DNA of 18,660 bases from a bacterium (GCA_044869275.1 JBIOXB010000233.1:1-18660), one strand, 5' to 3'; shown: positions 1 through 17,473, counted from the stretch's first letter. Program-made: numbers and translations. Notes: generated by a model not told the origin, from the letters alone.

Positions 1-1118
1 AGCCCGACGCCGGTGGCATGATTGGGCTTGTTGGCTTCTGAGATCACCGTGTGCACGGAATTCGGAAAGCCGATTTTTCCGGGCAGATTGAGAATTTCTT
101 CGGACATTTCAAGCAGCCCCGGCAACAAGGCCGTGCCGCCGGTGAGCACCACGCCCGCGGTCATCAAATTGAAATAGTCTGATTTTTTCATCTCTAAAAG
201 CGCGAGCGACAGAATTTCCTCGATGCGCGGCGAAATGATGTCAACCAAAACCTGCCGTGAAACACGGCGGGCCGCGCGGCCGCCCACGCCCGGGACCTCG
301 ACGACTTCATCGCGGCCCTGCTCCAGGCCCATGGCCGCGCCGTGTGAGATTTTAATGAGCTCCGCTTGATCCAGCGGCGTGCGCAAGCCGTGCGCCAGAT
401 CGTTGGTGATGTTTTTCCCTCCGAGCCCGACGATGGCGGTATGGCGAATGCAGCCGTTGTAGAACATCGCGATATCCGTCGTACCGCCGCCGAGGTCCAA
501 CAACGCCACGCCGAGATTTTTTTCGTCCTCCGTCAACGTGGAAAAACTCGAGGCCAGGGGCTCGAGCACGAGATCGTGCACGGTCATGCCGGCGCGCTCG
601 ATGCAGCGGCAAATGTTCTGCGCGGAAGTCACCGCGCCGGTGACGATATGCACCTCGGCTTCGAGGCGCACGCCGCTCATGCCCACGGGATCGTCGATGC
701 CGCGTTGATCATCGACGATGAACTCCTGCGGCAAAATGTGAATGATTTCGCGATCGAAGGGCAGGGCGACGGCTTTTGCCGCCTCGATCACCCGGCGCTT
801 GTCATCCGGCGTGATCACGTGATCTTCGCCCGCGACCGCCACCACGCCGCGGCCGTTGACGCTGCGAATGTGGTCGCCGGCGATGCCGGCATACACCGAA
901 TGAATCTCGACGCCGGCCATGCGCTCGGCTTCCTCTTTCGCGCGCAAAATGGAATGCACGGTGCGGTCGAGATTGATCACCACTCCGCGGCGCAAGCCGT
1001 CTGAGGGCGCGACTCCCATGCCGATGATCTTGAGGCGGCCGTGATCATCCACTTCCGCGATCAGGGCGCAAATTTTAGTCGTGCCGATGTCCAAAGCACA
1101 AATGTAGTCAGTGATCAT
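1..1118 (-). CDS. ftsA: Cell division protein FtsA (3' end truncated by window edge)
   Basis: Not in the ORF track; translated by hand from ATG at 1118: MITDYICALDIGTTKICALIAE...GLRRGVVINLDRTV...VYAGIAGDHIRS...GMSGVRLEAEVHIVTG...LVLEPLASS...LLDLGGGTTDIA...GVVLTGGTALLPG. These are actin-like FtsA motifs. SD AAGGAGG just upstream; follows ftsQ. Confidence 0.97.
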   Translation of the reverse strand, partial: MITDYICALDIGTTKICALIAEVDDHGRLKIIGMGVAPSDGLRRGVVINLDRTVHSILRAKEEAERMAGVEIHSVYAGIAGDHIRSVNGRGVVAVAGEDHVITPDDKRRVIEAAKAVALPFDREIIHILPQEFIVDDQRGIDDPVGMSGVRLEAEVHIVTGAVTSAQNICRCIERAGMTVHDLVLEPLASSFSTLTEDEKNLGVALLDLGGGTTDIAMFYNGCIRHTAIVGLGGKNITNDLAHGLRTPLDQAELIKISHGAAMGLEQGRDEVVEVPGVGGRAARRVSRQVLVDIISPRIEEILSLALLEMKKSDYFNLMTAGVVLTGGTALLPGLLEMSEEILNLPGKIGFPNSVHTVISEANKPNHATGVG

Positions 1119-1163: not shown

Positions 1164-1898
1164 TCAAGGCTCAAATTCTCCTTTCGCCACCACTTGATGA
1201 TCAAAACGCAAATCGAGGGCGGCCATTCTCCCGGGCTGCGAAGAAACCTGGCGCAGCACGGTTTGCAGCCGTTCGCATTTTTCCAGCCAGTCTTCCCGTC
1301 CTAAATAAACCGGCGTGCCGTTCTGGAGCAAATATAGCCTCGAATTGCCGCGGCTATCAAAATTGAATTCGGAGGTTTGATGATACAGGAGCGGGTATTG
1401 CATCTTCAGGGCGCTGATGAATTCAATGGCCGGCATGCCGGTTTCGGCGATCACGGTGTTATTGCCGTCCACGCGCGTCGGCACGCCGGAAAGAACCGGA
1501 AGATCAAAGCGTGCAGGGCCTTCCAGGCGCGGCAGCACGAAGCCCGTGTGATCCACCGGCCGCAGCTCTCTTTTGCTCAACAGCGCAATGGGTTCCCTTT
1601 CGACAATCGTGATTTCCAGCGTGGAGGGAAAAAGGCGCGCCACCAATGCCTGTTGCACAAAGGGCAAGGCCTCGACGCTTTCCTGTATGGGCTCGAGATC
1701 GACGTCAAAAATTCTTTTGCCCAGGGCCCCCTGCCCCAGCGACCGCACGCTTTCTTTGCTAAAATGCTCCACGCCTTCCACCACCACGTGCTGCACGCGA
1801 AAGCTGGAGTCTTCGCCGACCCAACTGCTCATGTGCAGGCCGAAGAGAACCACGGTGGTGGACAACAAAAAAGGTTTGCCGAGTTTTTGAATCGCCAT
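1164..1898 (-). CDS. ftsQ: Cell division protein FtsQ/DivIB (POTRA domain)
   Basis: N-terminal hydrophobic segment, POTRA-like FRVQHVVVEG...LPFVQQALVARLFPSTLEITIVEREPIA, C-terminal LDLRFDHQVV; located between murG and ftsA. Confidence 0.9.
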   Translation of the reverse strand: MAIQKLGKPFLLSTTVVLFGLHMSSWVGEDSSFRVQHVVVEGVEHFSKESVRSLGQGALGKRIFDVDLEPIQESVEALPFVQQALVARLFPSTLEITIVEREPIALLSKRELRPVDHTGFVLPRLEGPARFDLPVLSGVPTRVDGNNTVIAETGMPAIEFISALKMQYPLLYHQTSEFNFDSRGNSRLYLLQNGTPVYLGREDWLEKCERLQTVLRQVSSQPGRMAALDLRFDHQVVAKGEFEP

Positions 1899-1942
1899 GA
1901 TGCCAGCTCGTGTTTACGGAATGACCTCGCCTTAGGATTTCT

Positions 1943-3061
1943 TCAAAACGACAACATCTTCAAACAAGTCTCAACAATCTCCTGCAGCGCGCGCGGCCTC
2001 GCAAATTGGCGCGCCGCCTGCGACATTTTGCCGCGCATTTCGAGGTTCGCAACCAACTCATGAATCGCGGCAAACATCTCCTCGACATTCAGAGCATGCT
2101 CAACGAACACGCGCGCCGCGCCGGCTTTTTCCAGCGCGCGGGCGTTATGGGTTTGATGATCGGCCGTCGCATACGGGAACGGCAGCAAGAGGGCCGGCAA
2201 ACCGCACTGCGCCAGTTCGAAAATCGTCGAAGCACCGGACCGGCAAAGGACAAAGTCCGCCAGGGCATAGGCGAGACCCATGTCGTCCAAATAGGGCACG
2301 GCACGAACGCGGTCTTGCGTTGCGATCTGCCGCGCGACCATTTCAAAGTGCGCCGGGCCGGTGGCCCATAGAATTTGCAGAGGCGAAATCGTGGCCAGGC
2401 GCGGCAGCAACTCGAGCATCACGGTATTGATGCGGCGCGCGCCCTGGCTGCCGCCAAACACCAGCAGCGTGACCCTATCCGCGCGCAAATTCCATTTTGC
2501 CGCCGCCGCTTCGCGTTGCCGTGGCGTGCGCTCCCGCAAGCTCGCGCGCACCGGATTGCCAACCACGTGCAGGCGCTGCGGATTGTTGAAAAATTTCCGG
2601 CTCTCTGCAAAACTCAGAAACACCGCGCCGGCATATCGGCCGAGCCTGCGATTCACCAAACCGGGAAAGCTGTTCTGCTCTTGAATCACAAACTCGCGCC
2701 GCGAGAGCCATGCGGCGAGAAGTGCCGGCAGACTCACATAGCCGCCGGTGCCGATGACTAAATGCGGCTGAAACTCGTGAAAAAACCGCAGGCAAATTCT
2801 GACGCTTTGCCACAAGCGCACCGGCAGCAGCAGATTGCTCCATGCCAGCTGCCGCAACAGGCCGCGCACGGGCACCACAATCAGGCGATAGCCCAATGGC
2901 GGCAACACGCGCGCCTCCAGGCCTTGCGCCGTGCCGATGAACACCACTTCACATTTCGGCGCGCGCTGCTGGAAAGCTTCTGCCATTGCGATCGCGGGAT
3001 AAAGATGGCCGCCGGTGCCGCCGCCCGCAAAGACCAGCCGCAATTCGCGCTCAGCCGCCAC
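1943..3061 (-). CDS. murG: Undecaprenyl-PP-MurNAc-pentapeptide GlcNAc transferase MurG
   Basis: Motifs AGGGTGGHLYPA, GTGGYVS, EQNSFPG, GNPVR, FGGSQGA, RSGAST, HQTHNA. Start placed at GTG 3061, overlapping the ftsW stop; GTG 3073 is an alternative. The ORF-track start at 3154 is over-extended. Confidence 0.96.
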   Translation of the reverse strand: MAAERELRLVFAGGGTGGHLYPAIAMAEAFQQRAPKCEVVFIGTAQGLEARVLPPLGYRLIVVPVRGLLRQLAWSNLLLPVRLWQSVRICLRFFHEFQPHLVIGTGGYVSLPALLAAWLSRREFVIQEQNSFPGLVNRRLGRYAGAVFLSFAESRKFFNNPQRLHVVGNPVRASLRERTPRQREAAAAKWNLRADRVTLLVFGGSQGARRINTVMLELLPRLATISPLQILWATGPAHFEMVARQIATQDRVRAVPYLDDMGLAYALADFVLCRSGASTIFELAQCGLPALLLPFPYATADHQTHNARALEKAGAARVFVEHALNVEEMFAAIHELVANLEMRGKMSQAARQFARPRALQEIVETCLKMLSF

Positions 3062-4259
3062 GTTTGCGATCACGATACCACCGCACCTGCGCGAGCGGAA
3101 CGCTGGCCGCGCCTTTTTTCGAATTTTGGCGCGAGGCGCTGTGCAGCGAAACATTCAGCAACAAGCCAATGGCCATCAAATGGACGAGCAGCGATGATCC
3201 GCCGTAACTTACGAAAGGCAGCGGCACCCCGGTCGTCGGCAGCAGGTTTGTAACCACGGCGATATTGACAAAGGCACCGATGCCAATGGCAGAGGCGATA
3301 CCCAGCGCCAGCAAACGGCCGCTGTCGTCCGGCGCTTGCTGCGCGATTTTGAAGCCGCGCCAGAGGATGACGAAAAACATCGCGAGCACGAGGAGCGTGC
3401 CGATCAAACCGAGCTCCTCTCCGATCACCGACATAATAAAATCCGTGAAGGGATCGGGTAGAAAAAAAAGTTTCTGTTTGCTCTTGCCCAAACCCAGTCC
3501 GGTCAATCCGCCATGGCCAAGGCCAATGAGCGATTGTTTCACCTGCCATGCCGGCTCGGAATCACCCAGCACCGATTCGATGAAGGCTTCGATGCGGTCG
3601 CGTTGATAGGCAACTTTGGAAAGAAACGCGAGCGCCACCAAGGCGCCGGAAGAGATCAATGCGAACAGGTGCTGTAACTGCGCGCCCTGCATGAACAGCA
3701 TCATCAACGCGATGAGGGTGATCAGCAGCGCCGTCCCCATGTCCGGCTCGATCGCCACGAGCAACACGGCCACGCCGATGAGCAACAACTGCGGCAGCAA
3801 GCCGTCGGTAAAGTTGCGCAAATCCAAACTCGGCTTGGTAAGATTGGCCGCGAGATACATAATCAAGCAGAATTTCGCCAGCTCCGAGGGCTGGAGCTGC
3901 AGCGAACCCACGCTGATCCAGCGGTGCGCGCCGCGAATCGCCATGCTCTCCGGCAGAAAAAGCAATACCAGCAGCAAGATCACGGCCATGCCAAAGAACA
4001 ACGGCGACCAGCGCAACACGACATGATAGTCCACGCGCAGCATCAGGAACATCAAGATCAATCCCAGCGCGAGGCGCAGCAATTGCCTTTTTAAATAGAA
4101 GGCACTATCGTCGTGCGCGCGCTCGGCTTTGGCAGAGCTGGCGGTATAGACGAAGCACACGCTGAACACCAGCAGCACCAGCACCGCCATGAGCAGGATA
4201 AGGTCGAAGCCTGGTCGATTCATTCTGTTATTTTTGTGGCTTTTCAGTTTCCCCTGCAT
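3051..4259 (-). CDS. ftsW: SEDS peptidoglycan polymerase FtsW
   Basis: Polytopic membrane protein with GAHRWI, LQPSELAK, EPDMGT, LPDPFTDFIMSVIGEELG, PTTGVPLPFVSYGGSS. Alternative start ATG 4223. Confidence 0.95.
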   Translation of the reverse strand: MQGKLKSHKNNRMNRPGFDLILLMAVLVLLVFSVCFVYTASSAKAERAHDDSAFYLKRQLLRLALGLILMFLMLRVDYHVVLRWSPLFFGMAVILLLVLLFLPESMAIRGAHRWISVGSLQLQPSELAKFCLIMYLAANLTKPSLDLRNFTDGLLPQLLLIGVAVLLVAIEPDMGTALLITLIALMMLFMQGAQLQHLFALISSGALVALAFLSKVAYQRDRIEAFIESVLGDSEPAWQVKQSLIGLGHGGLTGLGLGKSKQKLFFLPDPFTDFIMSVIGEELGLIGTLLVLAMFFVILWRGFKIAQQAPDDSGRLLALGIASAIGIGAFVNIAVVTNLLPTTGVPLPFVSYGGSSLLVHLMAIGLLLNVSLHSASRQNSKKGAASVPLAQVRWYRDRKRGG

Positions 4260-4293
4260 GGCCTTGCTGCGCCTGCAGGGATCTCCGGTTCCG

Positions 4294-5379
4294 TTACCGC
4301 ACTTTGAAGGTCAGCAAGCTCAGCAGCGCCAGCAGCACGCCGACGATCCAAAAGCGCACCACGACTTGCGGCTCGCTCCATCCTTTCAATTCAAAATGAT
4401 GGTGCAGCGGCGCCATACGAAAAATTCTTTTCCCTCCAGTGTGTTTAAAGTACCAAACCTGGAGAATGACAGATAAACTTTCAGCGACAAAGACGCCTCC
4501 GATGATGGGGAGCAGCAATTCCTTCTTCAACACGATGGCGAGCGTACCGAGCGCGCTGCCGAGCGCAAGCGAGCCGGTGTCGCCCATGAATACATGCGCA
4601 GGATGTGTATTGTACCATAAAAAGCCGAGCGCGGCTCCGATCAAGGCGGAGCAGAACACGGTCAACTCGCCCGCGCCGGGCAAGTACAGGATGTTCAAAT
4701 AATCGCTGAAATCGACGCGGCCGGAAAGATAGCTGATGCCGGCCCAGGCGATCGCCGAGATCGCCACCAGGCCGATGGCCAGGCCATCGAGGCCATCCGA
4801 AAGATTCACGGAATTGCTCATGGCCGTGATAATGAACATCACCATCGGGATGTACAGCCAGCCGAAGTCGAATTCATAGTTTTTGAAAAACGGAACCGTC
4901 GTCATCGTCGCGATGCCCTCGAAAGCGGGCGCAATATAGATGATACAGCCGACGACGAGGCCCAGTGAAATCTGTCCGGCAATCTTGTAGCGGCCGATCA
5001 GGCCCTTGGGCAATTTTTTGATGACTTTCAAGTAGTCGTCCAAATATCCGACGATGCCCATCCACAGGGTGGCCAGCAGCACCAGCAACACATCGAGATT
5101 GGGCTTTGCCCAAAGCAGGGTTGGAACCAGCAACGCGAGCAGAATGATCAATCCGCCCATCGTCGGCGTGCCCGCCTTCTTGAGATGCGTTTGCGGTCCT
5201 TCCTTGCGAATCTCCTGCCCGATTTGGCGCTCGCGCAATGTATGAATGATGCGCGGGCCAACGATAAAGCTGATCAGCAACGCGGTGAGCGCCGCGCCCG
5301 CCGAGCGAAACGAGATGTATTGAAAAATATTGAAGCCGGAGACGTACTTGCTCAACGGGAACAAAAGCTCATACAGCAT
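4294..5379 (-). CDS. mraY: Phospho-N-acetylmuramoyl-pentapeptide transferase MraY
   Basis: KAGTPTMGG, LDDYLK, NSVNLSDGLDGLA, FMGDTGSLALG, MAPLHHHFE motifs; 361 aa. Confidence 0.98.
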   Translation of the reverse strand: MLYELLFPLSKYVSGFNIFQYISFRSAGAALTALLISFIVGPRIIHTLRERQIGQEIRKEGPQTHLKKAGTPTMGGLIILLALLVPTLLWAKPNLDVLLVLLATLWMGIVGYLDDYLKVIKKLPKGLIGRYKIAGQISLGLVVGCIIYIAPAFEGIATMTTVPFFKNYEFDFGWLYIPMVMFIITAMSNSVNLSDGLDGLAIGLVAISAIAWAGISYLSGRVDFSDYLNILYLPGAGELTVFCSALIGAALGFLWYNTHPAHVFMGDTGSLALGSALGTLAIVLKKELLLPIIGGVFVAESLSVILQVWYFKHTGGKRIFRMAPLHHHFELKGWSEPQVVVRFWIVGVLLALLSLLTFKVR

Positions 5380-5429
5380 AGCGGCTCCGGCGATTCATTT
5401 TTGTGATGAACAGGATTGACATGTACGGT

Positions 5430-6806
5430 TCACGCGCTGGCCAAGTGCTGGATCACCTCTTCCATCGCCATGCCGCGGCTGCCCTTGAGCAGCAGCACGT
5501 CCCTCGCCCGCACTGATTGCTTCACTTCCGCAATCAATTCTGCTTTTGTATCAAAGTGCAAAGCCCAAAACTCCTGGCCGACCGCCTCCACCAGTGCCCG
5601 CATGTGGGGACCGTAAGCGAGCACGGCTTGCAGCGGCAGCGTTCTGAGCCATTCACCCAGCTCGCGATGGCAGCTTTCCGCCGCCGCCCCCAATTCCAAC
5701 ATGTCTCCCAAGATCGCGACGCGGCGACCGCCGCGCAGCAGGGGTTTCATCGCGAGAAACTGCAACGCCGCGCGCATGGATTCGGGATTGGCATTGTAAG
5801 TGTCATCGATGATCGTCATGCCGCCGAACTGCAGCACCTGCATGCGCTTGGAGGGCGCTTCGCAAGCTTCCAATCCTCGCTTGATCGCCGCGGCGCTCAC
5901 CCCGAGAAAATCACCGGCAGCAATTGCAGCCAAAGCGTTGCCCGCATGATGCGTGCCGGGAATTTTCAATTGTATGTCCACATTTTTCCAGGCCACCGTG
6001 GCGCAACCGTTTTCATCGTGGCCGGCAATTCTGCCCTGAATCTGCGCCGGATTGTGCAAGCCGAACGTGACCGATTTCAGTCTTGCCGGCAACGCCGTCA
6101 TGAGATGGTGATCGTCGGCATTGACCAAGGCGACGCCGTCGTGCCCATGCAGATAATCGAACAACTCTTTCTTGGCTTTTGCGACACCGGCGAGATCGCC
6201 GAAAAACTCGAGGTGCGCATGGCCGACATTGGTGATCAATCCCAAATCCGGTCCGGCGATTTCACACAGGTGCGCGATTTCGCCGAAATGATTCATGCCC
6301 ATTTCCACCACGGCCATTTCATGCGCGGGCGCCAATGCCGACAAGGTGAGCGGCACACCGATATGGTTGTTCAAATTGCCCGAAGTTTTATGAATGAAGC
6401 ACTGCTGGCCCAACACCGCCGCAACCATTTCTTTCGTGGTGGTTTTGCCATTGCTGCCAGTGATCGCAAGCACGCGGCCGCCCCATCTTTTTCGAATCAT
6501 CCGGCCGAGTTGCTGCAAAGCCTGCAAAGATTCTTCGACGATCAAAAAATCGCCGCTGCGTTTCTGCTGCCGTTCGAACCATTGCGCTTCGACCACCGCC
6601 GCCAGTGCGCCTTGATGGAAGACTTCCTCAATAAAATCGTGGCCGTCGAACTTTTCTCCCCGCAAGGCAAAGAAGAGCATCTCCGTGCTGCAGGTGCGCG
6701 AATCAATTGAAACCGCGGCGGCGCGGCGGGTTAACGCTTTTTCATCGCCGGCATAGCGCGCGTTCATCGCACGACGTGCTTCGCCGAGAGTGGGAATGAT
6801 CGCCAT
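5430..6806 (-). CDS. murF: UDP-MurNAc-tripeptide--D-Ala-D-Ala ligase MurF
   Basis: IDSR, LRGEKFDGHDF, ITGSNGKTTTKEM, GNLNNHIGVPLTL, EMGMNHFGEI, DDTYNANPESM, LGDMLELG, LKGSRG are MurF-specific motifs. Start placed at ATG 6806 (MAIIPT), 458 aa; a single ligase, not a MurE-MurF fusion. Confidence 0.95.
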   Translation of the reverse strand: MAIIPTLGEARRAMNARYAGDEKALTRRAAAVSIDSRTCSTEMLFFALRGEKFDGHDFIEEVFHQGALAAVVEAQWFERQQKRSGDFLIVEESLQALQQLGRMIRKRWGGRVLAITGSNGKTTTKEMVAAVLGQQCFIHKTSGNLNNHIGVPLTLSALAPAHEMAVVEMGMNHFGEIAHLCEIAGPDLGLITNVGHAHLEFFGDLAGVAKAKKELFDYLHGHDGVALVNADDHHLMTALPARLKSVTFGLHNPAQIQGRIAGHDENGCATVAWKNVDIQLKIPGTHHAGNALAAIAAGDFLGVSAAAIKRGLEACEAPSKRMQVLQFGGMTIIDDTYNANPESMRAALQFLAMKPLLRGGRRVAILGDMLELGAAAESCHRELGEWLRTLPLQAVLAYGPHMRALVEAVGQEFWALHFDTKAELIAEVKQSVRARDVLLLKGSRGMAMEEVIQHLASA

Positions 6807-6820
6807 GTTGATTCCATTGT

Positions 6821-6863
6821 ATCCAGCATCCAGCAATAGATACTGGATGCTGGATCCTGGATA
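6821..6863. repeat. Heptamer tandem repeats in inverted arrangement (hairpin)
   Basis: ATCCAGC x2 (6821-6834) opposite CTGGATG/CTGGATC/CTGGATA (6843-6863). Perfect 13-bp stem 6821-6833/6843-6855 with a 9-nt loop. Confidence 0.85.
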
Positions 6864-6877
6864 TTGATCACTAACAA

Positions 6878-9094
6878 CTACTCCACCACCGCTACTTCCC
6901 TTGCGGCCGCCGCCTTCGCCTGGCATCGCAATTCACAGCGCACGCCCGAGGAAACCACGGTGCCCGCGGGCGGATATTGCTGCACCACGCGGCCGCTGCC
7001 CGTGACCTGAGCATCGAGGCCGTGCAAAGACAATTGCTGCAACGCTTGCCGCAGCGACAAGCCCACGAGCGCGGGCATGTGCAATTGCCGCTGCACGCGA
7101 TCGATTTCAAAAAGCTCCAAAGTCACTTTCGCGTGGCGCGCAACGGTGGCGCCTGGCGGCGGCATTTGATGGAGGATGAAATCGCCCTTGCCGTCCCATA
7201 CCGCTTCCAGGCCGAGCGTGCGCAGCATTTCTTCGCCGGCAGCGCGGCGATGATTGGTCAAGTCGGGAAGAATAATCGTGCGGGTGTCATCCATGATCGT
7301 CTCACCGGTGTTGAGCGTGAACGATTTGTCCTGCTCGGTTGAGGGGCGGGCAGGTTCTGCAAACAAAATCCTTTGCGCGATGCGCTTGAACGTCGGCGCG
7401 GCGGCCAGCCCGCCCCATTGCGAGGTGCGCGGACTCTCCAGCATCACAAAAATCAAATAGCGCGGATTGGGCACGGGAAAAAATCCGGCGAAAGAAACAT
7501 TCAGTTCCGAGGACGAGTAACCGCGCGCGCGCGCCAGGGCTTTGTGCGCGGTGCCAGTCTTACCGGCGATGCGCACACCGGGAATCGCGGCGTTTTTGGC
7601 CGTGCCGCTAATCACTGCGCCTTCCATCATCGCGGTCAACGTGCGCGCGGTTTCACCGGTCACCACACGGCGCACGACTTCGGTTTCGTCGAAGCGGAGC
7701 ACCTCACCCTCGGGATCTGCCACCGCGGCGATGAGCTTGGGCTGCAGCAACTCTCCGCCGTTGGCGATGGCGCCGTAGGCCATTGCCACCTGCAAAGCAT
7801 TCACCGAAACTTCATAGCCCATCGACATGGCCGCCAGCGAATAACCCGACCATTCTGCCGGATGCTTCAATGTGCCCGCGGCTTCACCGTCGGTGTCGAT
7901 GCGCGTGGGCATGCCAAAGCCGAAATCGCGCGCGTAGCGGTAAAACTTGTCGCGGCCCAGCAGGCGTGCCAGTTTTGCGGTGCCAATGTTGCTCGAATAG
8001 GCGAGTACTTCCGCGACGGTGAGATTGCCATAACGCTCGCCATGGTCGGTGACCACTTTATCCGCAATTTTATAGGCACCGTTCTCGCAAAAAATAATAT
8101 CACGCGGCGTGCGAATTTTTTCTTGTATCGCGCCGGCGAACGTAATGAGCTTGAAAACCGAGCCCGGCTCGAACAAATCCGTCAGCGTGCGATTGCGGCG
8201 CGTGGCCGTGGCGAAAGCCGAAGCCTGGTTGGGATCGAAACTCGGTTCGCAGACCATGGCCAGCACTTCACCGTTCATGGGATTGGTGACCACGGCCAGG
8301 CCCCCGCTGGCGCCAAACAACTCCATCGACACGCGCAACTCTTCCGTGGCAATCGCCTGAATCAGATAATCAATGGTCAAAACCACGTGGCTGCCCTCCA
8401 CCACGGGCTTTTCTTCCGCGCCAAGATTCGGAAGCTTATTGCCCACGGCGTCTCTCTGCATGATCTTGCGGCCCTCCTGCCCGCGCAGCAAGGAATCGCA
8501 GGCGAGCTCGACCCCCGCAATGCCGCGATTGTCAATATCGGTATATCCCAGCAGATGCGCGGCAATCTCTTGGTGAGGATAGCGCCGGCGCGCATCTTTT
8601 TCGAGGCGGAGGCCCGGCACATTCAACGCCTTGATCTTGGGGGCGAGCTCGGCATCGACGCGGCGCTTGAGCCAGACGAAAGACCGCTCGGTTTTCATGC
8701 GCGCATACAGCGCGCTCGAGGATTCACCCAATAGCTTCGCCAGTTTTTCGGCGACCCCGCGGCGGTCTTTCACCTGCCGCAAATCCACGCCGACGGAGAT
8801 GCAGGCTTCGTTCAAGACCAGTGGATTCCGATTGCGATCATAAATCAAGCCGCGTTGCGCTTCGAGTGAAACCGTGGACTGATGCTGGACTTTGGCCATT
8901 TGTTGATATCTTCCATGTTGCAGTACAGCGATGTAAAAAAGGCGTCCCGCCAGACACAAGCCAAAGAGCAAAAAAAAACCTTCCACCACCGCCACGCGCT
9001 GCCAGCAGGAAGAAGATTTCGAAGAAGAGTGGCGCTGTTTGTTATTTTCCCGCTTGCGCTCCGGGTACGCGAGGGTGATGGCTTTCGTTCTCAT
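6878..9094 (-). CDS. ftsI: Class B penicillin-binding protein FtsI/PBP3 with two C-terminal PASTA domains
   Basis: N-terminal TM, RGLIYDRN, RRYP, GIAGVE, EPGSVFK (SxxK), YSSNIG (SxN), AGKTGTA (KTG). Two PASTA-like repeats (LPDLTN...ILHQMPPPG; MPALVGLSLRQA...VVQQYPPAG). ATGA overlap with the ftsL stop. Confidence 0.93.
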   Translation of the reverse strand: MRTKAITLAYPERKRENNKQRHSSSKSSSCWQRVAVVEGFFLLFGLCLAGRLFYIAVLQHGRYQQMAKVQHQSTVSLEAQRGLIYDRNRNPLVLNEACISVGVDLRQVKDRRGVAEKLAKLLGESSSALYARMKTERSFVWLKRRVDAELAPKIKALNVPGLRLEKDARRRYPHQEIAAHLLGYTDIDNRGIAGVELACDSLLRGQEGRKIMQRDAVGNKLPNLGAEEKPVVEGSHVVLTIDYLIQAIATEELRVSMELFGASGGLAVVTNPMNGEVLAMVCEPSFDPNQASAFATATRRNRTLTDLFEPGSVFKLITFAGAIQEKIRTPRDIIFCENGAYKIADKVVTDHGERYGNLTVAEVLAYSSNIGTAKLARLLGRDKFYRYARDFGFGMPTRIDTDGEAAGTLKHPAEWSGYSLAAMSMGYEVSVNALQVAMAYGAIANGGELLQPKLIAAVADPEGEVLRFDETEVVRRVVTGETARTLTAMMEGAVISGTAKNAAIPGVRIAGKTGTAHKALARARGYSSSELNVSFAGFFPVPNPRYLIFVMLESPRTSQWGGLAAAPTFKRIAQRILFAEPARPSTEQDKSFTLNTGETIMDDTRTIILPDLTNHRRAAGEEMLRTLGLEAVWDGKGDFILHQMPPPGATVARHAKVTLELFEIDRVQRQLHMPALVGLSLRQALQQLSLHGLDAQVTGSGRVVQQYPPAGTVVSSGVRCELRCQAKAAAAREVAVVE

Positions 9095-9603
9095 TCCGCA
9101 GAGACAACGATCAATTTCGGCGCCAATCCGATCAAACCGAGGCGTTCGTGCGCCAGGCGCGAAATCCGGCTGTAACTCGCCAGTTGCTCCGCGCGTGCCA
9201 AATAACGATTGTTTTCCTCCTGCAGTTGCACGCTCTGCAATTCAAGATCAGAATTTTTTTTCGCCAACTGCCCGACCGATACGCGCAAACCAATCAACAA
9301 CAGGCTCAAGATCAGAAGCAAAGCGAAGGGCACGAGCAACCACAAAGCCGCTGGACGCGCGCCTCGCAGGGCGGGAAGGGACTTCGCCCTCCAGGCGGCT
9401 TTTGCGCCTGGTTTTGCCGTGGCCGGCTTTTTTGAGATCACCGGTTTCGCGGTTGCCGGGATTTTTGCCGTCACCGCCCTGGCTTTTGCCGCCGGCCTAA
9501 GCGTGATGCCGCTGCGCGCGTGTGGCGTGGCCATATGCCTGGCAGGCGGGCGCATGGATTTTTTCATCTGCTGCCATCTCGTGCTTGCGATCGCCCTGAT
9601 CAC
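9091..9603 (-). CDS. ftsL: Cell division protein FtsL with extended basic N-terminus
   Basis: Lies between rsmH and ftsI. One TM (LWLLVPFALLLILSLLLIGL), a coiled coil, and the FtsL-like C-terminus LASYSRISRLAHERLGL. Start uncertain: GTG 9603 (GTGA overlap with the rsmH stop) or ATG 9567. Confidence 0.8.
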   Translation of the reverse strand: MIRAIASTRWQQMKKSMRPPARHMATPHARSGITLRPAAKARAVTAKIPATAKPVISKKPATAKPGAKAAWRAKSLPALRGARPAALWLLVPFALLLILSLLLIGLRVSVGQLAKKNSDLELQSVQLQEENNRYLARAEQLASYSRISRLAHERLGLIGLAPKLIVVSAE

Positions 9604-10547
9604 CTCTTTTGCAAAATGCGCAACTTGGCGCTGCGTGCGCGCCGGTTGGCTTTGATCTCTTCCGCCGCGGGTCGAAGCGGCTTCGGCGTGAGCACCGTCG
9701 CCTGGCTTTTTTTGCCGCACACGCACACCGGCAATTCCGGCGGGCAGGTGCAGGTTTTCGCCAGCTCGCGGAAATACTGTTTGACGATGCGATCTTCCAA
9801 GGAATGATAACTCATCACGGCCAGGCGCCCGCCCGGCCGCAGCAGCGCGAACGCCTGCGGCAAAAAATCCCGCAAGGCGCCCAGCTCATCGTTCACCGCG
9901 ATGCGCAGCGCTTGAAACACGCGCGCGACGGATTTAACCTGAAGAGGGCCGTGTACTACGCCTTCAATAATGCGACGAAGCTCAGACGTGGTGCCGATCG
10001 CGCGAGAACGCCGCTTGTGGATGATGGCGCGCGCAATGGCACGAGCGCGCTGCTCTTCGCCATAGTCCCGCAGAAGACGCACCAGTTCGTCTTGTTCCAG
10101 AGCCGCCAACAGCTCCGCTGCAGTTTGGGGGAGGAAAGGATCCAGGCGCAAGTCCAGCGGACCCTCTTCAAGATAACTTAACCCTCTTTCCGGCAGATCG
10201 ATTTGTCGCGAGCTGAGACCCAAGTCCGCGAGTACGCCGTCGAGCGAGGTACTACCCATCGCAGCCAGGAGGCTTGTGATCTGCCGGAAATTTCCGTGTG
10301 AGAAAGAACAACGAGCTTGGTATGTGGCCAGGCGCTGTTGCGCCGCGGCCAAAGAATTCGGATCGACATCCAATCCGACAATTTTTAACTCGGCATTTCC
10401 CGCCTGCAGCAGGGCTAGACTGTGACCGCCATCGCCCAGCGTGGCATCGACAATCAGGCGTGCCTGCGGCGTGGCCAGATATTTAACGACCACCTCGGAC
10501 ATGACCGGTTGATGATACTGTCCTTGTTGTAGAATCTTTTCGGGCAC
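9600..10547 (-). CDS. rsmH: 16S rRNA m4C1402 methyltransferase RsmH (MraW)
   Basis: HQPVM, VDATLGDGGHS, ADLGLSS, GPLDLRLD, FQALRIAVNDEL, SYHSLEDRIVK, NRRARSAKLR motifs; GTG start. Confidence 0.97.
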   Translation of the reverse strand: MPEKILQQGQYHQPVMSEVVVKYLATPQARLIVDATLGDGGHSLALLQAGNAELKIVGLDVDPNSLAAAQQRLATYQARCSFSHGNFRQITSLLAAMGSTSLDGVLADLGLSSRQIDLPERGLSYLEEGPLDLRLDPFLPQTAAELLAALEQDELVRLLRDYGEEQRARAIARAIIHKRRSRAIGTTSELRRIIEGVVHGPLQVKSVARVFQALRIAVNDELGALRDFLPQAFALLRPGGRLAVMSYHSLEDRIVKQYFRELAKTCTCPPELPVCVCGKKSQATVLTPKPLRPAAEEIKANRRARSAKLRILQKR

Positions 10548-10652: not shown

Positions 10653-11138
10653 CTATGGTCGCGGCCGGTCCTCGTTGAGTGCCTGTACGGGCAACTTCTC
10701 ATTCCGCCCAATCTCACAAAACTGCTCGTAACTCGCCGCATCCCACATATCGAAAAAATCTCCCATGCCAACGTAACGAATTTCTTTCTCGATCCTTGCC
10801 GCCTGCAAAAACTCCGCGGGAATGTTGATGCGGCCCTGATTATCCAATTTCACTTGATGGCACAGCGCGAGAATAGATTGCATTTTGTAAATACCGATTT
10901 CAGTTTCTTCATCGAGATGAGAGGCCATCGGCAGGATTTTCTCGCGGAAATAGGAGACGGGGTAGGCGCGAATCATCGTCGCGTTCGATTTTTCGAAGAG
11001 CCGCAGCACCAGCGTGCGTATTTGCAGCAGCTCGACAATCTCGCGAATTTTTGCGGGAATCGCGGCCCTGCCCTTGTCGTCCAAAGTCTGCTTGTACCTG
11101 CCATAGAACTTTGGAATGATTTCGGTCAATTCAACCAA
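10653..11138 (-). CDS. mraZ: Transcriptional regulator MraZ
   Basis: Two SpoVT/AbrB-like repeats: FYGRYKQTLDDKGRAAIPAKIR and VKLDNQGRINIP...VGMGDFFDMWD. First gene of the dcw cluster; TTG start 7 nt after AGGA. Confidence 0.92.
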   Translation of the reverse strand: MVELTEIIPKFYGRYKQTLDDKGRAAIPAKIREIVELLQIRTLVLRLFEKSNATMIRAYPVSYFREKILPMASHLDEETEIGIYKMQSILALCHQVKLDNQGRINIPAEFLQAARIEKEIRYVGMGDFFDMWDAASYEQFCEIGRNEKLPVQALNEDRPRP

Positions 11139-11334: not shown

Positions 11335-11429
11335 GCACCCTGAGCTTGTCGAAGGGAGCTTGTCGAAGGGAGCTTGTCGAAGGGAGCTTGTCGAAGGGAG
11401 CTTGTCGAAGGGAGCTTGTCGAAGGGTGC
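11335..11429. repeat. Perfect tandem repeat GAGCTTGTCGAAGG x6 inside a REP-like palindrome
   Basis: Six identical 14-bp units at 11342-11425, flanked by inverted GCACCC (11335-11340) and GGGTGC (11424-11429). The single-unit form would be GCACCCTGAGCTTGTCGAAGGGTGC. Confidence 0.92.
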
Positions 11430-11697: not shown

Positions 11698-12921
11698 TCA
11701 CGACTCTGCGAAATTGATATCCCGGCCGTAAGTTTCATGGACGCCGTACAGCGAGACAAACGCCAGCAAAAACACCACGCCGCCAATCAGCATTGTGCTG
11801 TTGATCAGACCGAGATCATGCCGGAGGCTGGCGAGCACCAAAGTCATCGGCACCACCATCGCGCGCACGAGATTGGGCACGGAGGTGGTTACGGTCGCGC
11901 GAATGTTGGTGCCGAATTGTTCCGCGGCCATGGTGAGGAAAACCGTCCAATAACCCTGGCCCAAGCCGATAACGAAAATCGCCAGGAGAAACAAAGTCGC
12001 GCTCGCGCCCTGCAACCGCAAGAGGCCCAGCGTCAGAACGAGCATGCCCGCGAAACATACCCAAATTACCTTTTTCCGGTTTTTGATCATCTCGCTGATG
12101 ATGCCGCTCAGCCCGCTGCCGATCGCGAGGCCGATGGCCTGCCAGCGCAGCGTCTCCGCAGCCGTGAGCGCGCGGGTCAAATTCAGCGCGGCGCTGTATT
12201 CCGGCGAAAACGTGACGATGATGCCGGAGATGTACCAAATCGGCACGCCGATGGCCGTGACCGCGAGATATTTGAGCAGCGTTTTTTTCGAGCGCAGAAT
12301 CAACATGACGTCGCCTTTTTTGTGCGCGTCTTGTTTTTGTGCGTGGAACACGTGCGATTCTTGCAGGCCAATGAAACGCCCCGCCAAAACGATCAAACCC
12401 ATGGCGCCACCCACGAAATAGGCGGCGCGCCAGTCGAACCAGCTGCCGACAAACGAAGCCGTCAACGCGCCCAGCAGGCCCAAAAAGGAGATGATGGTCG
12501 TGCCGTAGCCGCGATATTGTCTGGGCATGATCTCCGCCACCAACGTAATGCCGGTGCCGAGCTCACCCGCCAGGCCCACGCCGGCGATGAAGCGCAGAGC
12601 CGCATAACTGGCGATATCGTGCACGAAACCGTTGGCGATATTTGCGAGCGAATACATCGTAATCGTGGCCAGCAGCGCGAACCGCCTGCCGATCTTATCT
12701 CCGATGATGCCCCACGCCACGCCGCCGATGAGCATGCCAATCATCTGCAAATTCAGCAGCAATATCCCCTGCGAGGTCAGCTCATCGCCCGCGATCCCGA
12801 TATCTTGCAGGCTCGCCACGCGCACCACGCCGAACAACACGATGTCGTACAAATCGACAAAATAACCCAGCGCGGCCACGGCCACGGAAAACGCCAGCTT
12901 GTTTTGAGGAGAAAGTGACAT
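11698..12921 (-). CDS. MFS transporter (substrate unknown; organic/aromatic acid symporter-like)
   Basis: About 12 TM segments, GYFVDLYD in TM1, motif A GIIGDKIGRR, RFIAGVGLAGE, AEQFGTNIRAT. Start placed at ATG 12921 (407 aa). Confidence 0.9.
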   Translation of the reverse strand: MSLSPQNKLAFSVAVAALGYFVDLYDIVLFGVVRVASLQDIGIAGDELTSQGILLLNLQMIGMLIGGVAWGIIGDKIGRRFALLATITMYSLANIANGFVHDIASYAALRFIAGVGLAGELGTGITLVAEIMPRQYRGYGTTIISFLGLLGALTASFVGSWFDWRAAYFVGGAMGLIVLAGRFIGLQESHVFHAQKQDAHKKGDVMLILRSKKTLLKYLAVTAIGVPIWYISGIIVTFSPEYSAALNLTRALTAAETLRWQAIGLAIGSGLSGIISEMIKNRKKVIWVCFAGMLVLTLGLLRLQGASATLFLLAIFVIGLGQGYWTVFLTMAAEQFGTNIRATVTTSVPNLVRAMVVPMTLVLASLRHDLGLINSTMLIGGVVFLLAFVSLYGVHETYGRDINFAES

Positions 12922-12970
12922 GCCTGACCTTGGTGGTGAAACGCTCTGCGCTCCAGCTTTTTGTCCGAAG

Positions 12971-13006
12971 CGGATTTTCATCCCGAAGGGTCGGGATGAA
13001 AATCTG
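12971..13006. repeat. Perfect 14-bp stem-loop between the TBDR and MFS genes
   Basis: GATTTTCATCCCGA-AGGG-TCGGGATGAAAATC (12973-13004); no U-tract follows on the coding strand. Confidence 0.8.
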
Positions 13007-13059
13007 ATGTAGGCGCTTAGCGATCTTCTCAGCAATCTTCGCGAGCTTGTTCCCGCAGC

Positions 13060-15537
13060 TCAGAATGAATACTTCAATTCTGCCGAAAACAATCTGCCGA
13101 TCGCCGGCGAGGCGACGAACTCGCGCACTTTCGAATCGAACAAATTGGTGACGTGGCCCGCGGCGGTCAGGCCGGGCATGATTCTATAGCCGGCGCTGAG
13201 ATCGAGGTTGACGAAATCACCGAGCGGGCCTTCATTGAAATCTCTGAAGACGCGCGTATTCTCAACGACCTGATCGCCGCCGATGACCAAACTCCTGTTG
13301 GTCTGGGCCGCGACATTGATGCCGGAAAAGAAGTCATAGGCTTCGACCCAGCGCACAAAGACGTTGCCGAAATACTTCGGCTGGCTCAGGCCCAGGCCGA
13401 GACCCAACTTGTTTTTCGGTGTATTGATGGGTAGGTCGTCGTCCGTCACCACGCCGTTTTTATTGGCGTCATTTTTCAAATCATTTTTGTCGAGGTCGAA
13501 ATCAAAGAACGAATAATTCAGCACGATGTTGACACTGTTGCTCAGATAGTAATTCAAACCCACATCGAAGCCGTAGGTGTTCACCTTCCCAAAATTCAGA
13601 TAGGTCAGTACCAGTGCGGCGCCTGCAGCCGGCGTGCCCGGAATCACTTCGCTCATGGGCTGATCGCCTCTGTGGGTGACGGTGCGGCCATTGGTGGCGA
13701 TGTTGACCAGCGGGCTGAGGAAATCTTCAGAGAAGTTATAATAGCCGTTGACATCCAGGAACAGTTTTTTTTCAGCCAGGACGCCTTTATAACCGGCCTC
13801 AACGGATTGAATGTTTTCGACCACCAGTGACGGAATTTTGCTGTTATCGCTCAAAGTGAAGCCTTCACCATTTCCCAAAACCAGACCGCCGAATATATTC
13901 GCACTCAGATTGAGGATGCTCGGCGAAGCAATGCCTTCACCGTAAGTCAAACGCCACGTGCCGCTGCCCTTGCTGTACAACAAGCCGGCTTTGGGAATGA
14001 GGTTGAAGCCGTAGAGCTCGTGATCATCCGCGCGTGCGGCCACCATGGCCTTGAGGCCGGAGCTACCGATCGGCTTCTCGATTTGTCCATAAAAGCCGTA
14101 CTGGTCCAATTCGATAATGCCCTGCTGGTCGAACAAATAGGTGTGTTTGCTGTCGGCAATGTCCCTCTGGAATTGCGCGCCTGCGATGACGTTGAAGCCG
14201 GCCCAGGTGTTGTTGTATTGCGCCTCCGCATTCCAGCGCCGCGAATTGTCCTTGAAATTCGCCTCGCGGTTGACACTTCTGCCGAGAGCAGCCACCCATT
14301 GTTCGTGCACGGAACGGCGCAAGGACTCTTCTTCGCTGAAGCCCGCGTTCTTGAAGCTCCAATAGTTTTGCGTGCGCTGGTTGAGCGCGAACGTGTCTTC
14401 AGTTTTGCTCCAAGTGTGATAAGCCTGCGCAAACACCCGCGGCGAAACAAAGCGGCCTTGTAAATAGAAAAGCTTCCAGTCGATGATCTGATTTCTGCCG
14501 GCATTGGTGACGCCCAGATTGTTGCTTTGGCTGCCGCCGCCCGCCAAAACCAAATCGGTTCCCGGTTTCAGGCTGTAATACAACGCCGTTTCTCCGCGAA
14601 GAGCATCGAATTTGCGATCGATTCCGACTTCTTCCGGAAAGGCAATGGCGCCGGTGCCGTTGTAAACCGTGTCGGTGTAAGCATATTCTTCGCCCCGAGA
14701 ATACTCGCCGCTGATCTTGTAGGCCACTTTATCGCTCACCACCTGCGCATGGCGCAGTCTTCCGCTGAACACACTGTGATTGCCGCCGCCGAGCGCGACG
14801 GTCGTGCCTTCCGACGTCCGCGGATCTTTGGTGATGGTATTGACCAGGCCATTGTGAGCGTTTGGACCGTAAAGCGCTGCCGCCGGTCCTAGAATCAATT
14901 CAACGCGCTCGATATCCTCTTTGACCGTGGTGCCCAACGGGCCGAAGGGCAGGCTGGTTGCAACCAAAGTGGAGAGGCGCATGTCATTGATCTGCAGATT
15001 TTTCGAATTGAAGGCGCTGTTGAAGCCGCGAATATTAAGACCCGCGCCTGCCACTCCGGAGCGCACGTAATCGACGCCTTTTTGGCGCGCGGCCAATTCT
15101 CCCGGGTTGAAAGCCGGATATTCGTCGATGCCGCGCGCATTGATGACCGACATGGTCGCCGGCGCCTCCGTTAGTTTCTCCGGCCGGCGGGAGGCGGTGG
15201 TCACGATCACATCGCCCATGAGATTGGCCTCGGCCAGCGCGACCTCGGCCGTCGCTGCCGCGCCGGCTGCAACATTGACCGGAACGCTGGCCTGCTCGTA
15301 GCCGAGAAAGGTCACCACCAGCGTGTGAGCTCCCGGCGGCACGTTCTTGATTTCAAACTGGCCTTTCGCGTCGCTGGAGGCGCCCATCGATGTACCTTGC
15401 AGAACCACGTTCGCGTTCCGCAATGCCTCGCCGGTTTTGCCATCGGTTACCCGTCCTTGAATGCTTCCGGTTTGCGCATAAGTCATGCCTGCCAGGAGAA
15501 AGGCAAGCATCGTGCAACACCAAGGCAAGCGTTTCAT
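13060..15537 (-). CDS. TonB-dependent outer-membrane receptor with N-terminal carboxypeptidase-regulatory-like domain
   Basis: Signal peptide (MKRLP...TYA-Q), GSIQGRVTDGKTGEALRNANVVL...TFLGY domain, TonB box/plug (DVIVTTASRR; IERVELILGPAAALYGPNAHNGLVNTITK), C-terminal LKYSF. Start ATG 15537 with SD GGAGG; 825 aa. Confidence 0.95.
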   Translation of the reverse strand: MKRLPWCCTMLAFLLAGMTYAQTGSIQGRVTDGKTGEALRNANVVLQGTSMGASSDAKGQFEIKNVPPGAHTLVVTFLGYEQASVPVNVAAGAAATAEVALAEANLMGDVIVTTASRRPEKLTEAPATMSVINARGIDEYPAFNPGELAARQKGVDYVRSGVAGAGLNIRGFNSAFNSKNLQINDMRLSTLVATSLPFGPLGTTVKEDIERVELILGPAAALYGPNAHNGLVNTITKDPRTSEGTTVALGGGNHSVFSGRLRHAQVVSDKVAYKISGEYSRGEEYAYTDTVYNGTGAIAFPEEVGIDRKFDALRGETALYYSLKPGTDLVLAGGGSQSNNLGVTNAGRNQIIDWKLFYLQGRFVSPRVFAQAYHTWSKTEDTFALNQRTQNYWSFKNAGFSEEESLRRSVHEQWVAALGRSVNREANFKDNSRRWNAEAQYNNTWAGFNVIAGAQFQRDIADSKHTYLFDQQGIIELDQYGFYGQIEKPIGSSGLKAMVAARADDHELYGFNLIPKAGLLYSKGSGTWRLTYGEGIASPSILNLSANIFGGLVLGNGEGFTLSDNSKIPSLVVENIQSVEAGYKGVLAEKKLFLDVNGYYNFSEDFLSPLVNIATNGRTVTHRGDQPMSEVIPGTPAAGAALVLTYLNFGKVNTYGFDVGLNYYLSNSVNIVLNYSFFDFDLDKNDLKNDANKNGVVTDDDLPINTPKNKLGLGLGLSQPKYFGNVFVRWVEAYDFFSGINVAAQTNRSLVIGGDQVVENTRVFRDFNEGPLGDFVNLDLSAGYRIMPGLTAAGHVTNLFDSKVREFVASPAIGRLFSAELKYSF

Positions 15538-15606
15538 ATGTACCCTCCGTTGCGTTGGGTTAGTGGGAGATGGTGAATTGTCGTCTTTTGCATTTACTCT
15601 CGTACT

Positions 15607-15685
15607 CTCGTTGCCACGTTCCACGTGGGAACGCATCTGAGGCGCTCTGCGCCAGAATGATTCCCACGCAGAGCGCGAGAATCAG
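15607..15685. repeat. Degenerate REP-like palindrome doublet
   Basis: CTCGTTGCCACGTTCCACGTGGGAACGCA (15607-15635) and TGATTCCCACGCAGAGCGCGAGAATCAG (15658-15685) are each imperfect palindromes. Internal GCGCTCTGCG (15642-15651) is the exact reverse complement of CGCAGAGCGC (15667-15676). Confidence 0.65.
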
Positions 15686-15709
15686 CGCACGCCGAGCAAA
15701 AAGCAGCTT

Positions 15710-17248: not shown

Positions 17249-17284
17249 ATGGCTCCACATTGCCAAAAGAAGTCAAGCATTGTC

Positions 17285-17428
17285 GGATTGTTGGATCATT
17301 GGATTGAGGGATCATCGGATGAATGGATCATTGGATTGATGGAGTGATGGGTTCATCGCATGATCTAAGATCCAAACTCCATCAATCCAGCAATCCATCA
17401 ATCCATCAATCCACCTATCCGCCATTCC
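17285..17428. repeat. Octamer tandem arrays in inverted orientation (long imperfect hairpin)
   Basis: Eight GGA-initiated units (GGATTGTT GGATCATT GGATTGAG GGATCATC GGATGAAT GGATCATT GGATTGAT GGAGTGAT; 17285-17348), a spacer, then seven TCC-ending units (CAAACTCC ATCAATCC AGCAATCC ATCAATCC ATCAATCC ACCTATCC GCCATTCC; 17373-17428). Confidence 0.88.
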
Positions 17429-17473
17429 CTCTCTCCAGTCCTCCAGCCATACGCTCGTCCAAAACGCTGAGCT

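Follow-up and report, generated by a model that had tools for sequence, protein, structure and literature searches.

The window described here, a whole stretch of 18,660 nucleotides of bacterial DNA (GCA_044869275.1, JBIOXB010000233.1:1-18660), carries a division and cell wall (dcw) operon from which murC, murD and murE are missing, the genes for the ligases that add L-Ala, D-Glu and the diamino acid to UDP-linked N-acetylmuramic acid (UDP-MurNAc). The window is contig C233 of the source genome (G000), an assembly of 6.67 Mb in 255 contigs with 94.4% completeness. The feature is real and lineage-wide: a class of large-genomed bacteria is predicted to have a peptide-only peptidoglycan auxotrophy with the ligase Mpl as its sole entry ligase. 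In the source bacterium the three genes appear to be lost and not relocated, and its predicted need is for the joined peptide only. This stem peptide is probably scavenged from other bacteria, with Mpl as the only entry step.

The dcw operon of the sister lineage has the order ftsI-murE-murF-mraY-murD-ftsW-murG-murC-murB-ftsQ in all three loci compared. Profile searches of the open reading frames (ORFs) of the window give mraZ-rsmH-ftsL-like-ftsI-murF-mraY-ftsW-murG-ftsQ-ftsA on the minus strand. The murE slot between ftsI and murF (6807..6877), which holds murE in 3/3 sister-class loci, measures 71 nt if murF starts at the ATG at 6806; the murD slot between mraY and ftsW (4260..4293) measures 34 nt, and the murC(-murB) slot between murG and ftsQ (1899..1942) 44 nt. 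An earlier note on this DNA had described these gaps as free of remnants and fusions, and both the coordinates and tblastn agree. With E. coli queries for MurC, MurD, MurE, MurB, Ddl and Mpl and within-phylum queries for MurD and MurE, all at E up to 10, no trace of murC, murD, murE, murB, ddl or mpl is detected in the three gaps; below E 1e-3, permissive tblastn matched only murF itself, as cross-matches. Mur ligase fusions and gene remnants in the window are rejected, the murF ORF of 498 aa reaching only 445 bits on the MurE-MurF fusion model as against 1023.

The assembly was checked with the contigs of four runs. Run X1, a possible source run, spans the entire stretch; contigs of X2 and X3 bridge the murG/ftsQ junction and a contig of X7 bridges mraY/ftsW, and among the pieces listed none besides X1 bridges ftsI/murF. 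The two runs that hold most of the stretch are soil metagenomes from one study. The murC, murD and murE slots are empty in 17/17 relatives' dcw loci as opposed to 0/3 sister-class loci, which excludes the misassembly that the earlier note had allowed for and shows the canonical order confined, in this comparison, to the sister class. murB still lies between murG and ftsQ in 4/17 relatives' loci. The earlier note had also counted murB and ddl as missing; this holds for the operon but not for the genome, where both are encoded elsewhere (contigs C41 and C112). The absence of ddl from its dcw slot is not special, because the three sister loci with the canonical order have no ddl between murB and ftsQ either.

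The Mur ligase middle domain (PF08245) occurs at three loci in a six-frame search of the source genome, corresponding to MurF in the window, FolC (C65) and Mpl (C76). Queries from E. coli and from relatives, together with 43 within-phylum queries (E 0.01), return the same three loci and no other MurC, MurD or MurE; the orthologues that could have lain elsewhere in the genome were thus not found. In another genome of the phylum (G035), a second, shorter MurF-like gene lies outside the dcw operon.

The C76 protein (positions 1335-2741 of the contig, minus strand) scores 431 bits on the Mpl model TIGR01081 (cut-off 388.7) versus 320 bits on the MurC model (cut-off 335). Its best match in the PDB is the Psychrobacter Mpl 3hn7 with 330 bits, the MurC structures scoring about 208. 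The protein contains the Mpl-specific (S/T)AFFDK loop, with the two residues after DK altered, and keeps 14/15 of the C-terminal peptide-site residues listed as Mpl-specific in PMC3060825. The loop is present in 41/41 sampled in-group ligases versus 0/4 within-phylum MurC. In a quick IQ-TREE run, these 41 ligases and one Zixiibacteriota protein form one group (SH-aLRT 94), cluster by family and lie with E. coli Mpl in the Mpl part of the tree; the outgroup consisted of 40 of the 80 Mpl loci listed from a contig scan, all from other phyla among the matches listed. The C76 ligase is, on these criteria, a true Mpl with predicted tripeptide ligase activity. The gene context of mpl is conserved, with a rodZ-like gene directly upstream in 19/20 relatives' loci and maf, dtd, ubiA and an R3H gene as further neighbors. 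No stand-in ligase recurs beside mpl, where the neighbors are Omp85, UbiA, Dtd, Maf, RodZ and R3H/Jag, or in the dcw operon.

Among homologues with an organism name, those closest to the MurF of the window belong to 'candidate division KSB1 bacterium' (59-64% identity), and the gene pattern of its own family resembles clade I of a published KSB1 table (PMC9012183 supplement 7). The source bacterium therefore likely belongs to the KSB1 group, a placement that we infer. The distribution of the wall genes was profiled in 133 phylum genomes of at least 85% completeness, with a cross-table drawn from the full positive lists. The sister set comprises 24 genomes (families f16-f22) and the Mpl-type set 109, of which 101 belong to the window's own class and the remainder to f14 and f15. 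Mpl was called from the 282-355-bit tier on the MurC model, with 41 cases checked by alignment, and each family search was positive in control genomes (10/14 for MurA, C, D and E). As kin are not independent, the counts describe a pattern and carry no statistical test.

MurC, MurD, MurE and MurI are each present in 24/24 sister genomes, which have neither Mpl-tier proteins (0/24) nor AmgK-like kinases (0/24). The 109 Mpl-type genomes contain MurC in 1, MurI in 0, MurD in 7, MurE in 42, Mpl in 104 and the AmgK-like kinase in 89; in the own class, the counts are 0/101 for MurC and MurI, 6/101 for MurD, 40/101 for MurE and 96/101 for Mpl. All three ligases are missing in 64/109, and MurE is kept alone in 38/109. 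The own order has Mpl in 22/22 genomes and MurC, MurD and MurE in 0/22 each, eight of these genomes being rated 99-100% complete. A single-contig genome that is 100% complete (G102) has Mpl, MurE, MurF and MurA/B, with no MurC, MurD, MurI or Dat and no YkfC-like or epimerase match.

These counts bear on whether murC, murD and murE simply lie elsewhere in the genome or in the ~6% that the assembly lacks, by relocation or artefact. The source genome is 94% complete in 255 contigs, and off-dcw murD and murE genes do occur in more distant families, one genome (G041) carrying murE, murD and murC together as a full block, all of which would favor such an account. It is nevertheless barely credible, given that none of the three genes is found in any order genome, that MurC is absent from all class genomes including the single-contig one, and that the same searches succeed in every sister genome and in the controls. 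The transfer of murCDE as a block, proposed in the earlier note, is refuted for the source genome and its order, where a canonical Mur pathway with a rearranged dcw operon is likewise found in none of the 22 genomes; at the level of the lineage, relocation is already refuted.

The history of the three genes is more complex in other families. In trees built by FastTree and rooted with E. coli sequences only as outgroup, the MurD of f5 falls beside the sister-lineage MurD, and those of G041 and G100 fall outside. A single long-branched clade (L050, L052, L253-L260), possibly specialized for salvage, unites twelve MurE proteins of seven families, all from genomes without MurD; in f6 and f13, Dat is encoded a few genes away. 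G041 combines a dcw operon without all three ligases, an Mpl and the off-dcw block (L245/L246). An ancestral relocation was considered for this block, which only G041 has; as the MurD and MurE of the block branch apart from the other copies in the phylum (FastTree), re-acquisition is as likely. The pattern weakly suggests that murC and murI were lost early and that murD and murE were lost, relocated or regained piecemeal.

Another possible explanation is that the specificity of Mpl (or MurF) has widened to add the first residues singly, replacing MurC and perhaps MurD and MurE. Three genomes (G031, G081 and G085) have MurA, Mpl, MurD and MurE and no MurC, so that Mpl may replace MurC there, and the published side activities of Mpl lend weak support (k of 0.7 per min with L-Ala and 1.4 with L-Ala-D-Glu, as against 260 with the tripeptide). 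The glycine-rich loop of the protein also has a MurC-like Gly where Mpl has Phe, but a Phe-to-small-residue change is found among the 80 listed Mpl of other phyla as well. The N-terminal domain is built for UDP-MurNAc, the peptide-site motifs are as expected for a typical Mpl, genomes that keep MurD show no pattern of their own in them, and the three genomes lack MurI and Dat. To our knowledge, there is no precedent for one ligase that extends UDP-MurNAc-peptides with three different acceptors, which also counts against this idea, and it is considered very unlikely. The three genomes (L054, L251, L249/L250) offer a natural test of whether Mpl can do the work of MurC.

Scavenging of the stem peptide accounts for the ligase pattern as follows. 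Foreign muropeptides would be cut and imported by NamZ, NagZ-type GH3 proteins, Amidase_2 and Amidase_3 proteins and an AmpG-like permease; LdcA would trim the tetrapeptide to the tripeptide, which Mpl would ligate to UDP-MurNAc. The latter would be supplied by MurA and MurB in the source genome and by AnmK/AmgK/MurU-like salvage in many MurA-less relatives, and MurF would add home-made D-Ala-D-Ala. The predicted product is a normal D-Ala-D-Ala lipid II, because Mpl, MurF, Alr, Ddl, MraY, MurG, MurJ, FtsW/FtsI and MreBCD-PBP2 are encoded. Relatives with MurE and without MurD (38/109) would also be able to use L-Ala-D-Glu stubs and add their own diaminopimelate (DAP). As Mpl is the only entry ligase and recycling of a cell's own wall gives no net growth, the peptide would have to come from outside or from an undescribed synthetase; under scavenging, the lack of net growth from recycling would make the outside supply obligatory. 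The Mpl-only option of the earlier note is in this respect borne out at the genome level, with Mpl over its cut-off, MurC, MurD and MurE absent and a salvage kit present.

The salvage kit of the source genome includes AnmK, MurQ, NamZ (C76) and GH3, S66 and amidase domains over their cut-offs; the GH3 domains are those of two NagZ-type proteins, the S66 domain is that of an LdcA encoded near mreB, and the amidase domains are those of four Amidase_2 and several Amidase_3 proteins. A kinase with APH and RapZ_C domains is followed by a MurU-like nucleotidyltransferase on C126; the kinase owes its AmgK label to its domain, to the order of the genes and to the KEGG assignment given by the published table. 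The AmpG-like permease has 629 aa (L105:1208-3094, contig C139). About 200 residues between its halves are missing from the 422-aa form of G102, and the matches in G019 and G123 are full length; by description, the insert recalls the periplasmic domain of Acinetobacter AmpG1 (PMC13507758). A YkfC-like peptidase with SH3 and NlpC/P60 domains lies between two sodium-solute symporters (SSF; L104:1140-5485, contig C10), and SSF or POT-like MFS genes adjoin the YkfC-like gene in own-family and f4 loci. These transporters are candidate importers of stem peptides or DAP.

Three lines of evidence point to an outside supply. First, MurA is missing from 61/109 Mpl-type genomes, 16/22 genomes of the own order and 11/14 of the own family, and the AmgK-like kinase is found in 58/61 MurA-less genomes, the remaining three being 85-87% complete; conversely, f4 has the kinase in 0/5 and MurA in 5/5. 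Because MurA-less genomes have no known predicted route to UDP-MurNAc other than salvage, most of the lineage would depend on foreign MurNAc whatever the source of the peptide. Second, the supply of D-Glu appears to have decayed with MurC and MurD, as MurI is gone in 109/109 and Dat is present in 23/109 only, leaving 86/109 with neither. Third, genes for stem processing are enriched, the YkfC-like peptidase being found in 70/109 versus 2/24 sister genomes and the Ala-Glu epimerase-like protein in 84/109 versus 3/24. The two genes are often adjacent, and several loci lie beside NamZ, amidase, SSF or POT-like transporter genes. The YkfC-like gene is found in 32/38 MurE-only genomes versus 34/64 genomes without both ligases. 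The MurE-only genomes fit a variant in which stems are trimmed and rebuilt, with the exception of f8, where MurE occurs in five genomes without a YkfC match. The DNPR motif for DAP is present in 15 of the 19 in-group MurE printed, the other four having the pattern elsewhere or not at all.

Several observations weigh against scavenging, for which the evidence is gene content. The source genome makes every building block: MurA (over cut-off) and MurB (below cut-off) are encoded on C41, Ddl (C112) and Alr (C211) are over cut-off, and C227 carries a lysC-asd-dapB-dapA-dapD cluster with a dapE-like gene, DapA, DapB and DapD being over cut-off, as are DapF and LysA; a Dat-like aminotransferase scores 276 bits against a cut-off of 277. 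DapF is kept in 100/109 Mpl-type genomes, which also fits a hidden de novo route, although the lysine pathway accounts for the DAP genes. The scores of MurA are two-tiered (about 430-495 and 540-590 bits), with the source genome (C41:12900-16315) in the lower tier; MurA is patchy in the order, and that of the source genome may be re-acquired. YkfC together with the epimerase would destroy the tripeptide and not save it. Asp/Glu-racemase-family genes, with specificity not assigned, are present in the source genome and 4/5 tested genomes and could supply D-Glu, for which reason the decay of the D-Glu supply is not proof.

The salvage kit itself has gaps. The AmpG, AmgK and MurU labels fall under the curated cut-offs, and the AmpG-like query matched 3/5 genomes tested and missed one Mpl-type genome that is 100% complete. 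In the source genome, no AmpD orthologue was found, Opp/MppA has no clear candidate apart from one weak SBP_bac_5 match, and the four Amidase_2 proteins are candidates for a cytoplasmic amidase. A sister genome with a full Mur pathway (G070) has a catabolic cluster of an amidase, a YkfC-like peptidase, an epimerase, a SIS protein and two NamZ (L305), and stem-processing genes can therefore be purely nutritional. Finally, the KEGG table of 44 KSB1 metagenome-assembled genomes (MAGs) in PMC9012183 supplement 7, which agrees with the skew found here in listing mpl in 40/44, murD in 9/44 and murE in 10/44, also lists murC (K01924) in 36/44 and murI in 4/44, in conflict at face value with our counts. 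The murC labels are tentatively attributed to Mpl proteins labelled twice, because in our own search 33 proteins of the Mpl tier also exceeded the cut-off for MurC. In clade I of the same table, murA, murD, murE and murI are found in 0/6 and murF, mpl and amgK in 6/6.

The intact precursor pathways also suit a different explanation, in which the cell has an undescribed non-Mur route from amino acids to the free di- or tripeptide, Mpl loads this peptide and the cell is prototrophic. Such a route could employ Ddl-like ATP-grasp ligases, with D-Glu derived from Dat or from epimerized L-Ala-L-Glu, and the Ala-Glu-epimerase-like enolase of the source genome has counterparts in 21/22 genomes of the order. 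Besides Ddl, the source genome encodes three Ddl-like ligases, two of them a pair with a GNAT gene (C179:29496-32120) and the third on C168. The pair is found in 14/14 own-family genomes, clade I of the KSB1 table has four ddl-annotated copies in 6/6 MAGs (PMC9012183 supplement 7), and further fusion proteins of the Ddl-like kind are encoded by G102 and G035. In other families, Ddl-like domains are fused to a methyltransferase or an uncharacterized domain (L310, L315).

The distribution of the pair, however, does not track ligase loss, and it is rejected as a general stand-in: it is found in 0/8 genomes of the sister family of the order, is absent from the MurC-less f4, f5 and f8, and occurs in 8/24 genomes with a complete MurC/D/E/I pathway. 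In a PF13535 search of five genomes, G019 (98% complete) has only the true Ddl and G036 has no match; of the ATP-grasp genes on C179, C168 and C98, the profile of the phylum covers the C179 pair. The source genome has no nonribosomal peptide synthetase, its nine other AMP-binding ORFs (482-661 aa) being all stand-alone, and neither the neighborhood of mpl nor the dcw operon holds a recurrent ligase-like gene. Moreover, the 11 own-family genomes without MurA must scavenge anyway. A non-Mur route is therefore judged unlikely. The undescribed stem synthesis suggested in the earlier note accordingly finds no candidate, among those examined, that follows the loss, although a family-specific or unrecognized enzyme remains conceivable.

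The remaining genes of the operon speak to whether peptidoglycan is reduced or optional, with growth largely without a wall and some wall built when fragments are present. The related LCP-89 reportedly has an atypical wall, going by the title of a 2019 report by Youssef, and IA91, a bacterium of another phylum, becomes coccoid without muropeptides (PMC11652737). The divisome and elongasome genes of the source genome (ftsI, ftsW, ftsQ, ftsA and ftsZ; mreBCD-mrdA) are nevertheless intact, as are MurJ, MltG, Alr and Ddl, and 17/17 relatives' loci retain the late dcw genes, save one murG and one ftsQ without a match (the dcw operon of G037 has no murG match from ftsW to ftsQ). An optional wall is thus highly improbable.

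All genes of the operon lie on the minus strand of the window. The first is mraZ (10653..11138; PF02381, E 4e-17), followed by rsmH (mraW; 9600..10547; TIGR00006, 302 bits, cut-off 154) and an ftsL-like gene of uncertain start (9091..9726; PF04977, 27.1 bits, cut-off 28.9), which lies, as its name would lead one to expect, between rsmH and ftsI. ftsI (6878..9094) encodes a class B penicillin-binding protein with PASTA domains (PF03717, PF00905 and PF03793), and murF (5430..6806; TIGR01143, 422 bits, cut-off 289) is the sole Mur ligase remaining in the operon. They are followed by mraY (4294..5379; TIGR00445, 404 bits), ftsW (3051..4259; TIGR02614, 359 bits, cut-off 337.5), murG (1943..3073, with a likely start at 3061-3073 in an ORF open to 3154; TIGR01133, 296 bits, cut-off 250), ftsQ (1164..1898; PF08478 and PF03799) and ftsA (3..1118; TIGR01174, 426 bits), which is truncated by the contig end. 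ftsZ is on a separate contig (C44).

Short repeats are found at three sites. The ftsI/murF gap holds a short inverted repeat of 7-nt units (6820-6863) and is length-variable, the X7 contig having 14 additional bases. Upstream of mraZ is a perfect tandem array of about six copies of a 14-nt unit (11342-11425). At 17275-17449, the FabH-like gene and the acyl-CoA ligase gene are separated by a long imperfect hairpin of two degenerate, mutually facing 8-nt tandem arrays that looks like a repetitive extragenic palindromic (REP) type element. The genes at 11698-18517, also on the minus strand, encode a FabH-like 3-oxoacyl-ACP synthase, an acyl-CoA ligase, a TonB-dependent receptor and an MFS transporter; they are a separate uptake or catabolic unit with no link to the dcw operon shown.

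Dependence on foreign muropeptides is known from Fidelibacter multiformis IA91, which grows only with exogenous muropeptides (PMC11652737; so cited in PMC13507758). According to PMC11652737, IA91 cannot make MurNAc, D-Ala, D-Glu, DAP or Lys, has a genome of 2.79 Mb and belongs to the class AB16 (Fidelibacterota / Marine Group A), in which synthesis genes are missing and recycling genes are kept. The source genome resembles IA91 in that MurC, MurD, MurE and MurI are absent and genes for muropeptide uptake and recycling are kept, AmpG, AmgK and MurU being below cut-off and in the expected context; in both cases, the trait is clade-wide in a large uncultured clade of the FCB neighborhood. Unlike IA91, the source genome has 6.7 Mb and still encodes MurA/B, Alr/Ddl, DAP/Lys synthesis and a Dat-like protein, and thus represents a narrower variant. 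The dependence is proven for IA91 and, for the source bacterium, predicted from genes.

In E. coli and Psychrobacter arcticus, wall recycling employs AmpG, NagZ, AmpD, LdcA and Mpl, and Mpl is non-essential beside MurC, MurD and MurE (PMC3060825). The source genome shares the ligase family and motifs and the AmpG-like, NagZ, LdcA, AnmK and MurQ partners; in contrast, its Mpl is the sole predicted ligase that puts a peptide on UDP-MurNAc, and no AmpD or MppA was found. Tannerella forsythia is a MurNAc auxotroph without MurA/B that relies on AmgK/MurU salvage (PMC7670621). The likeness lies in taking a wall precursor from neighbors, as in the MurA-less relatives, most of which have the AmgK-like kinase, but the source genome is a mirror image of Tannerella, with MurA/B kept and the peptide ligases gone. 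The MurD2/MurL route of Xanthomonas is said to dispense with MurI and still to need MurC, a MurD-type ligase and MurE. It is similar, in outline, in its non-canonical early stem steps; the source genome, however, has no spare Mur ligase, PF08245 being confined to MurF, Mpl and FolC.

The raw pattern is already contained in PMC9012183 supplement 7; 'mur' has no matches in the main texts of PMC9012183 and PMC11683472. In the literature searched, with subscription journals outside coverage, no report of Mur-ligase loss in KSB1 was found, and the scavenging concept is published for another phylum. The IA91 study of Katayama 2024 reportedly surveyed ~16 phyla for missing synthesis genes, which may include KSB1.

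MurC, MurD and MurE count as universal, essential enzymes of bacteria with a wall. In the class described here, with ~100 members whose genomes are mostly large (3-10 Mb), MurC is wholly absent and MurD mostly so. If scavenging is correct, dependence on foreign wall fragments is not confined to small streamlined anaerobes, and there would be a concrete reason for KSB1 remaining uncultured. The graded loss states, with or without MurA, MurE and MurD, predict different acceptable donors: MurE-less cells, including the source bacterium, should need DAP-type walls, and cells that keep MurE could take trimmed stubs whatever the type of donor wall.

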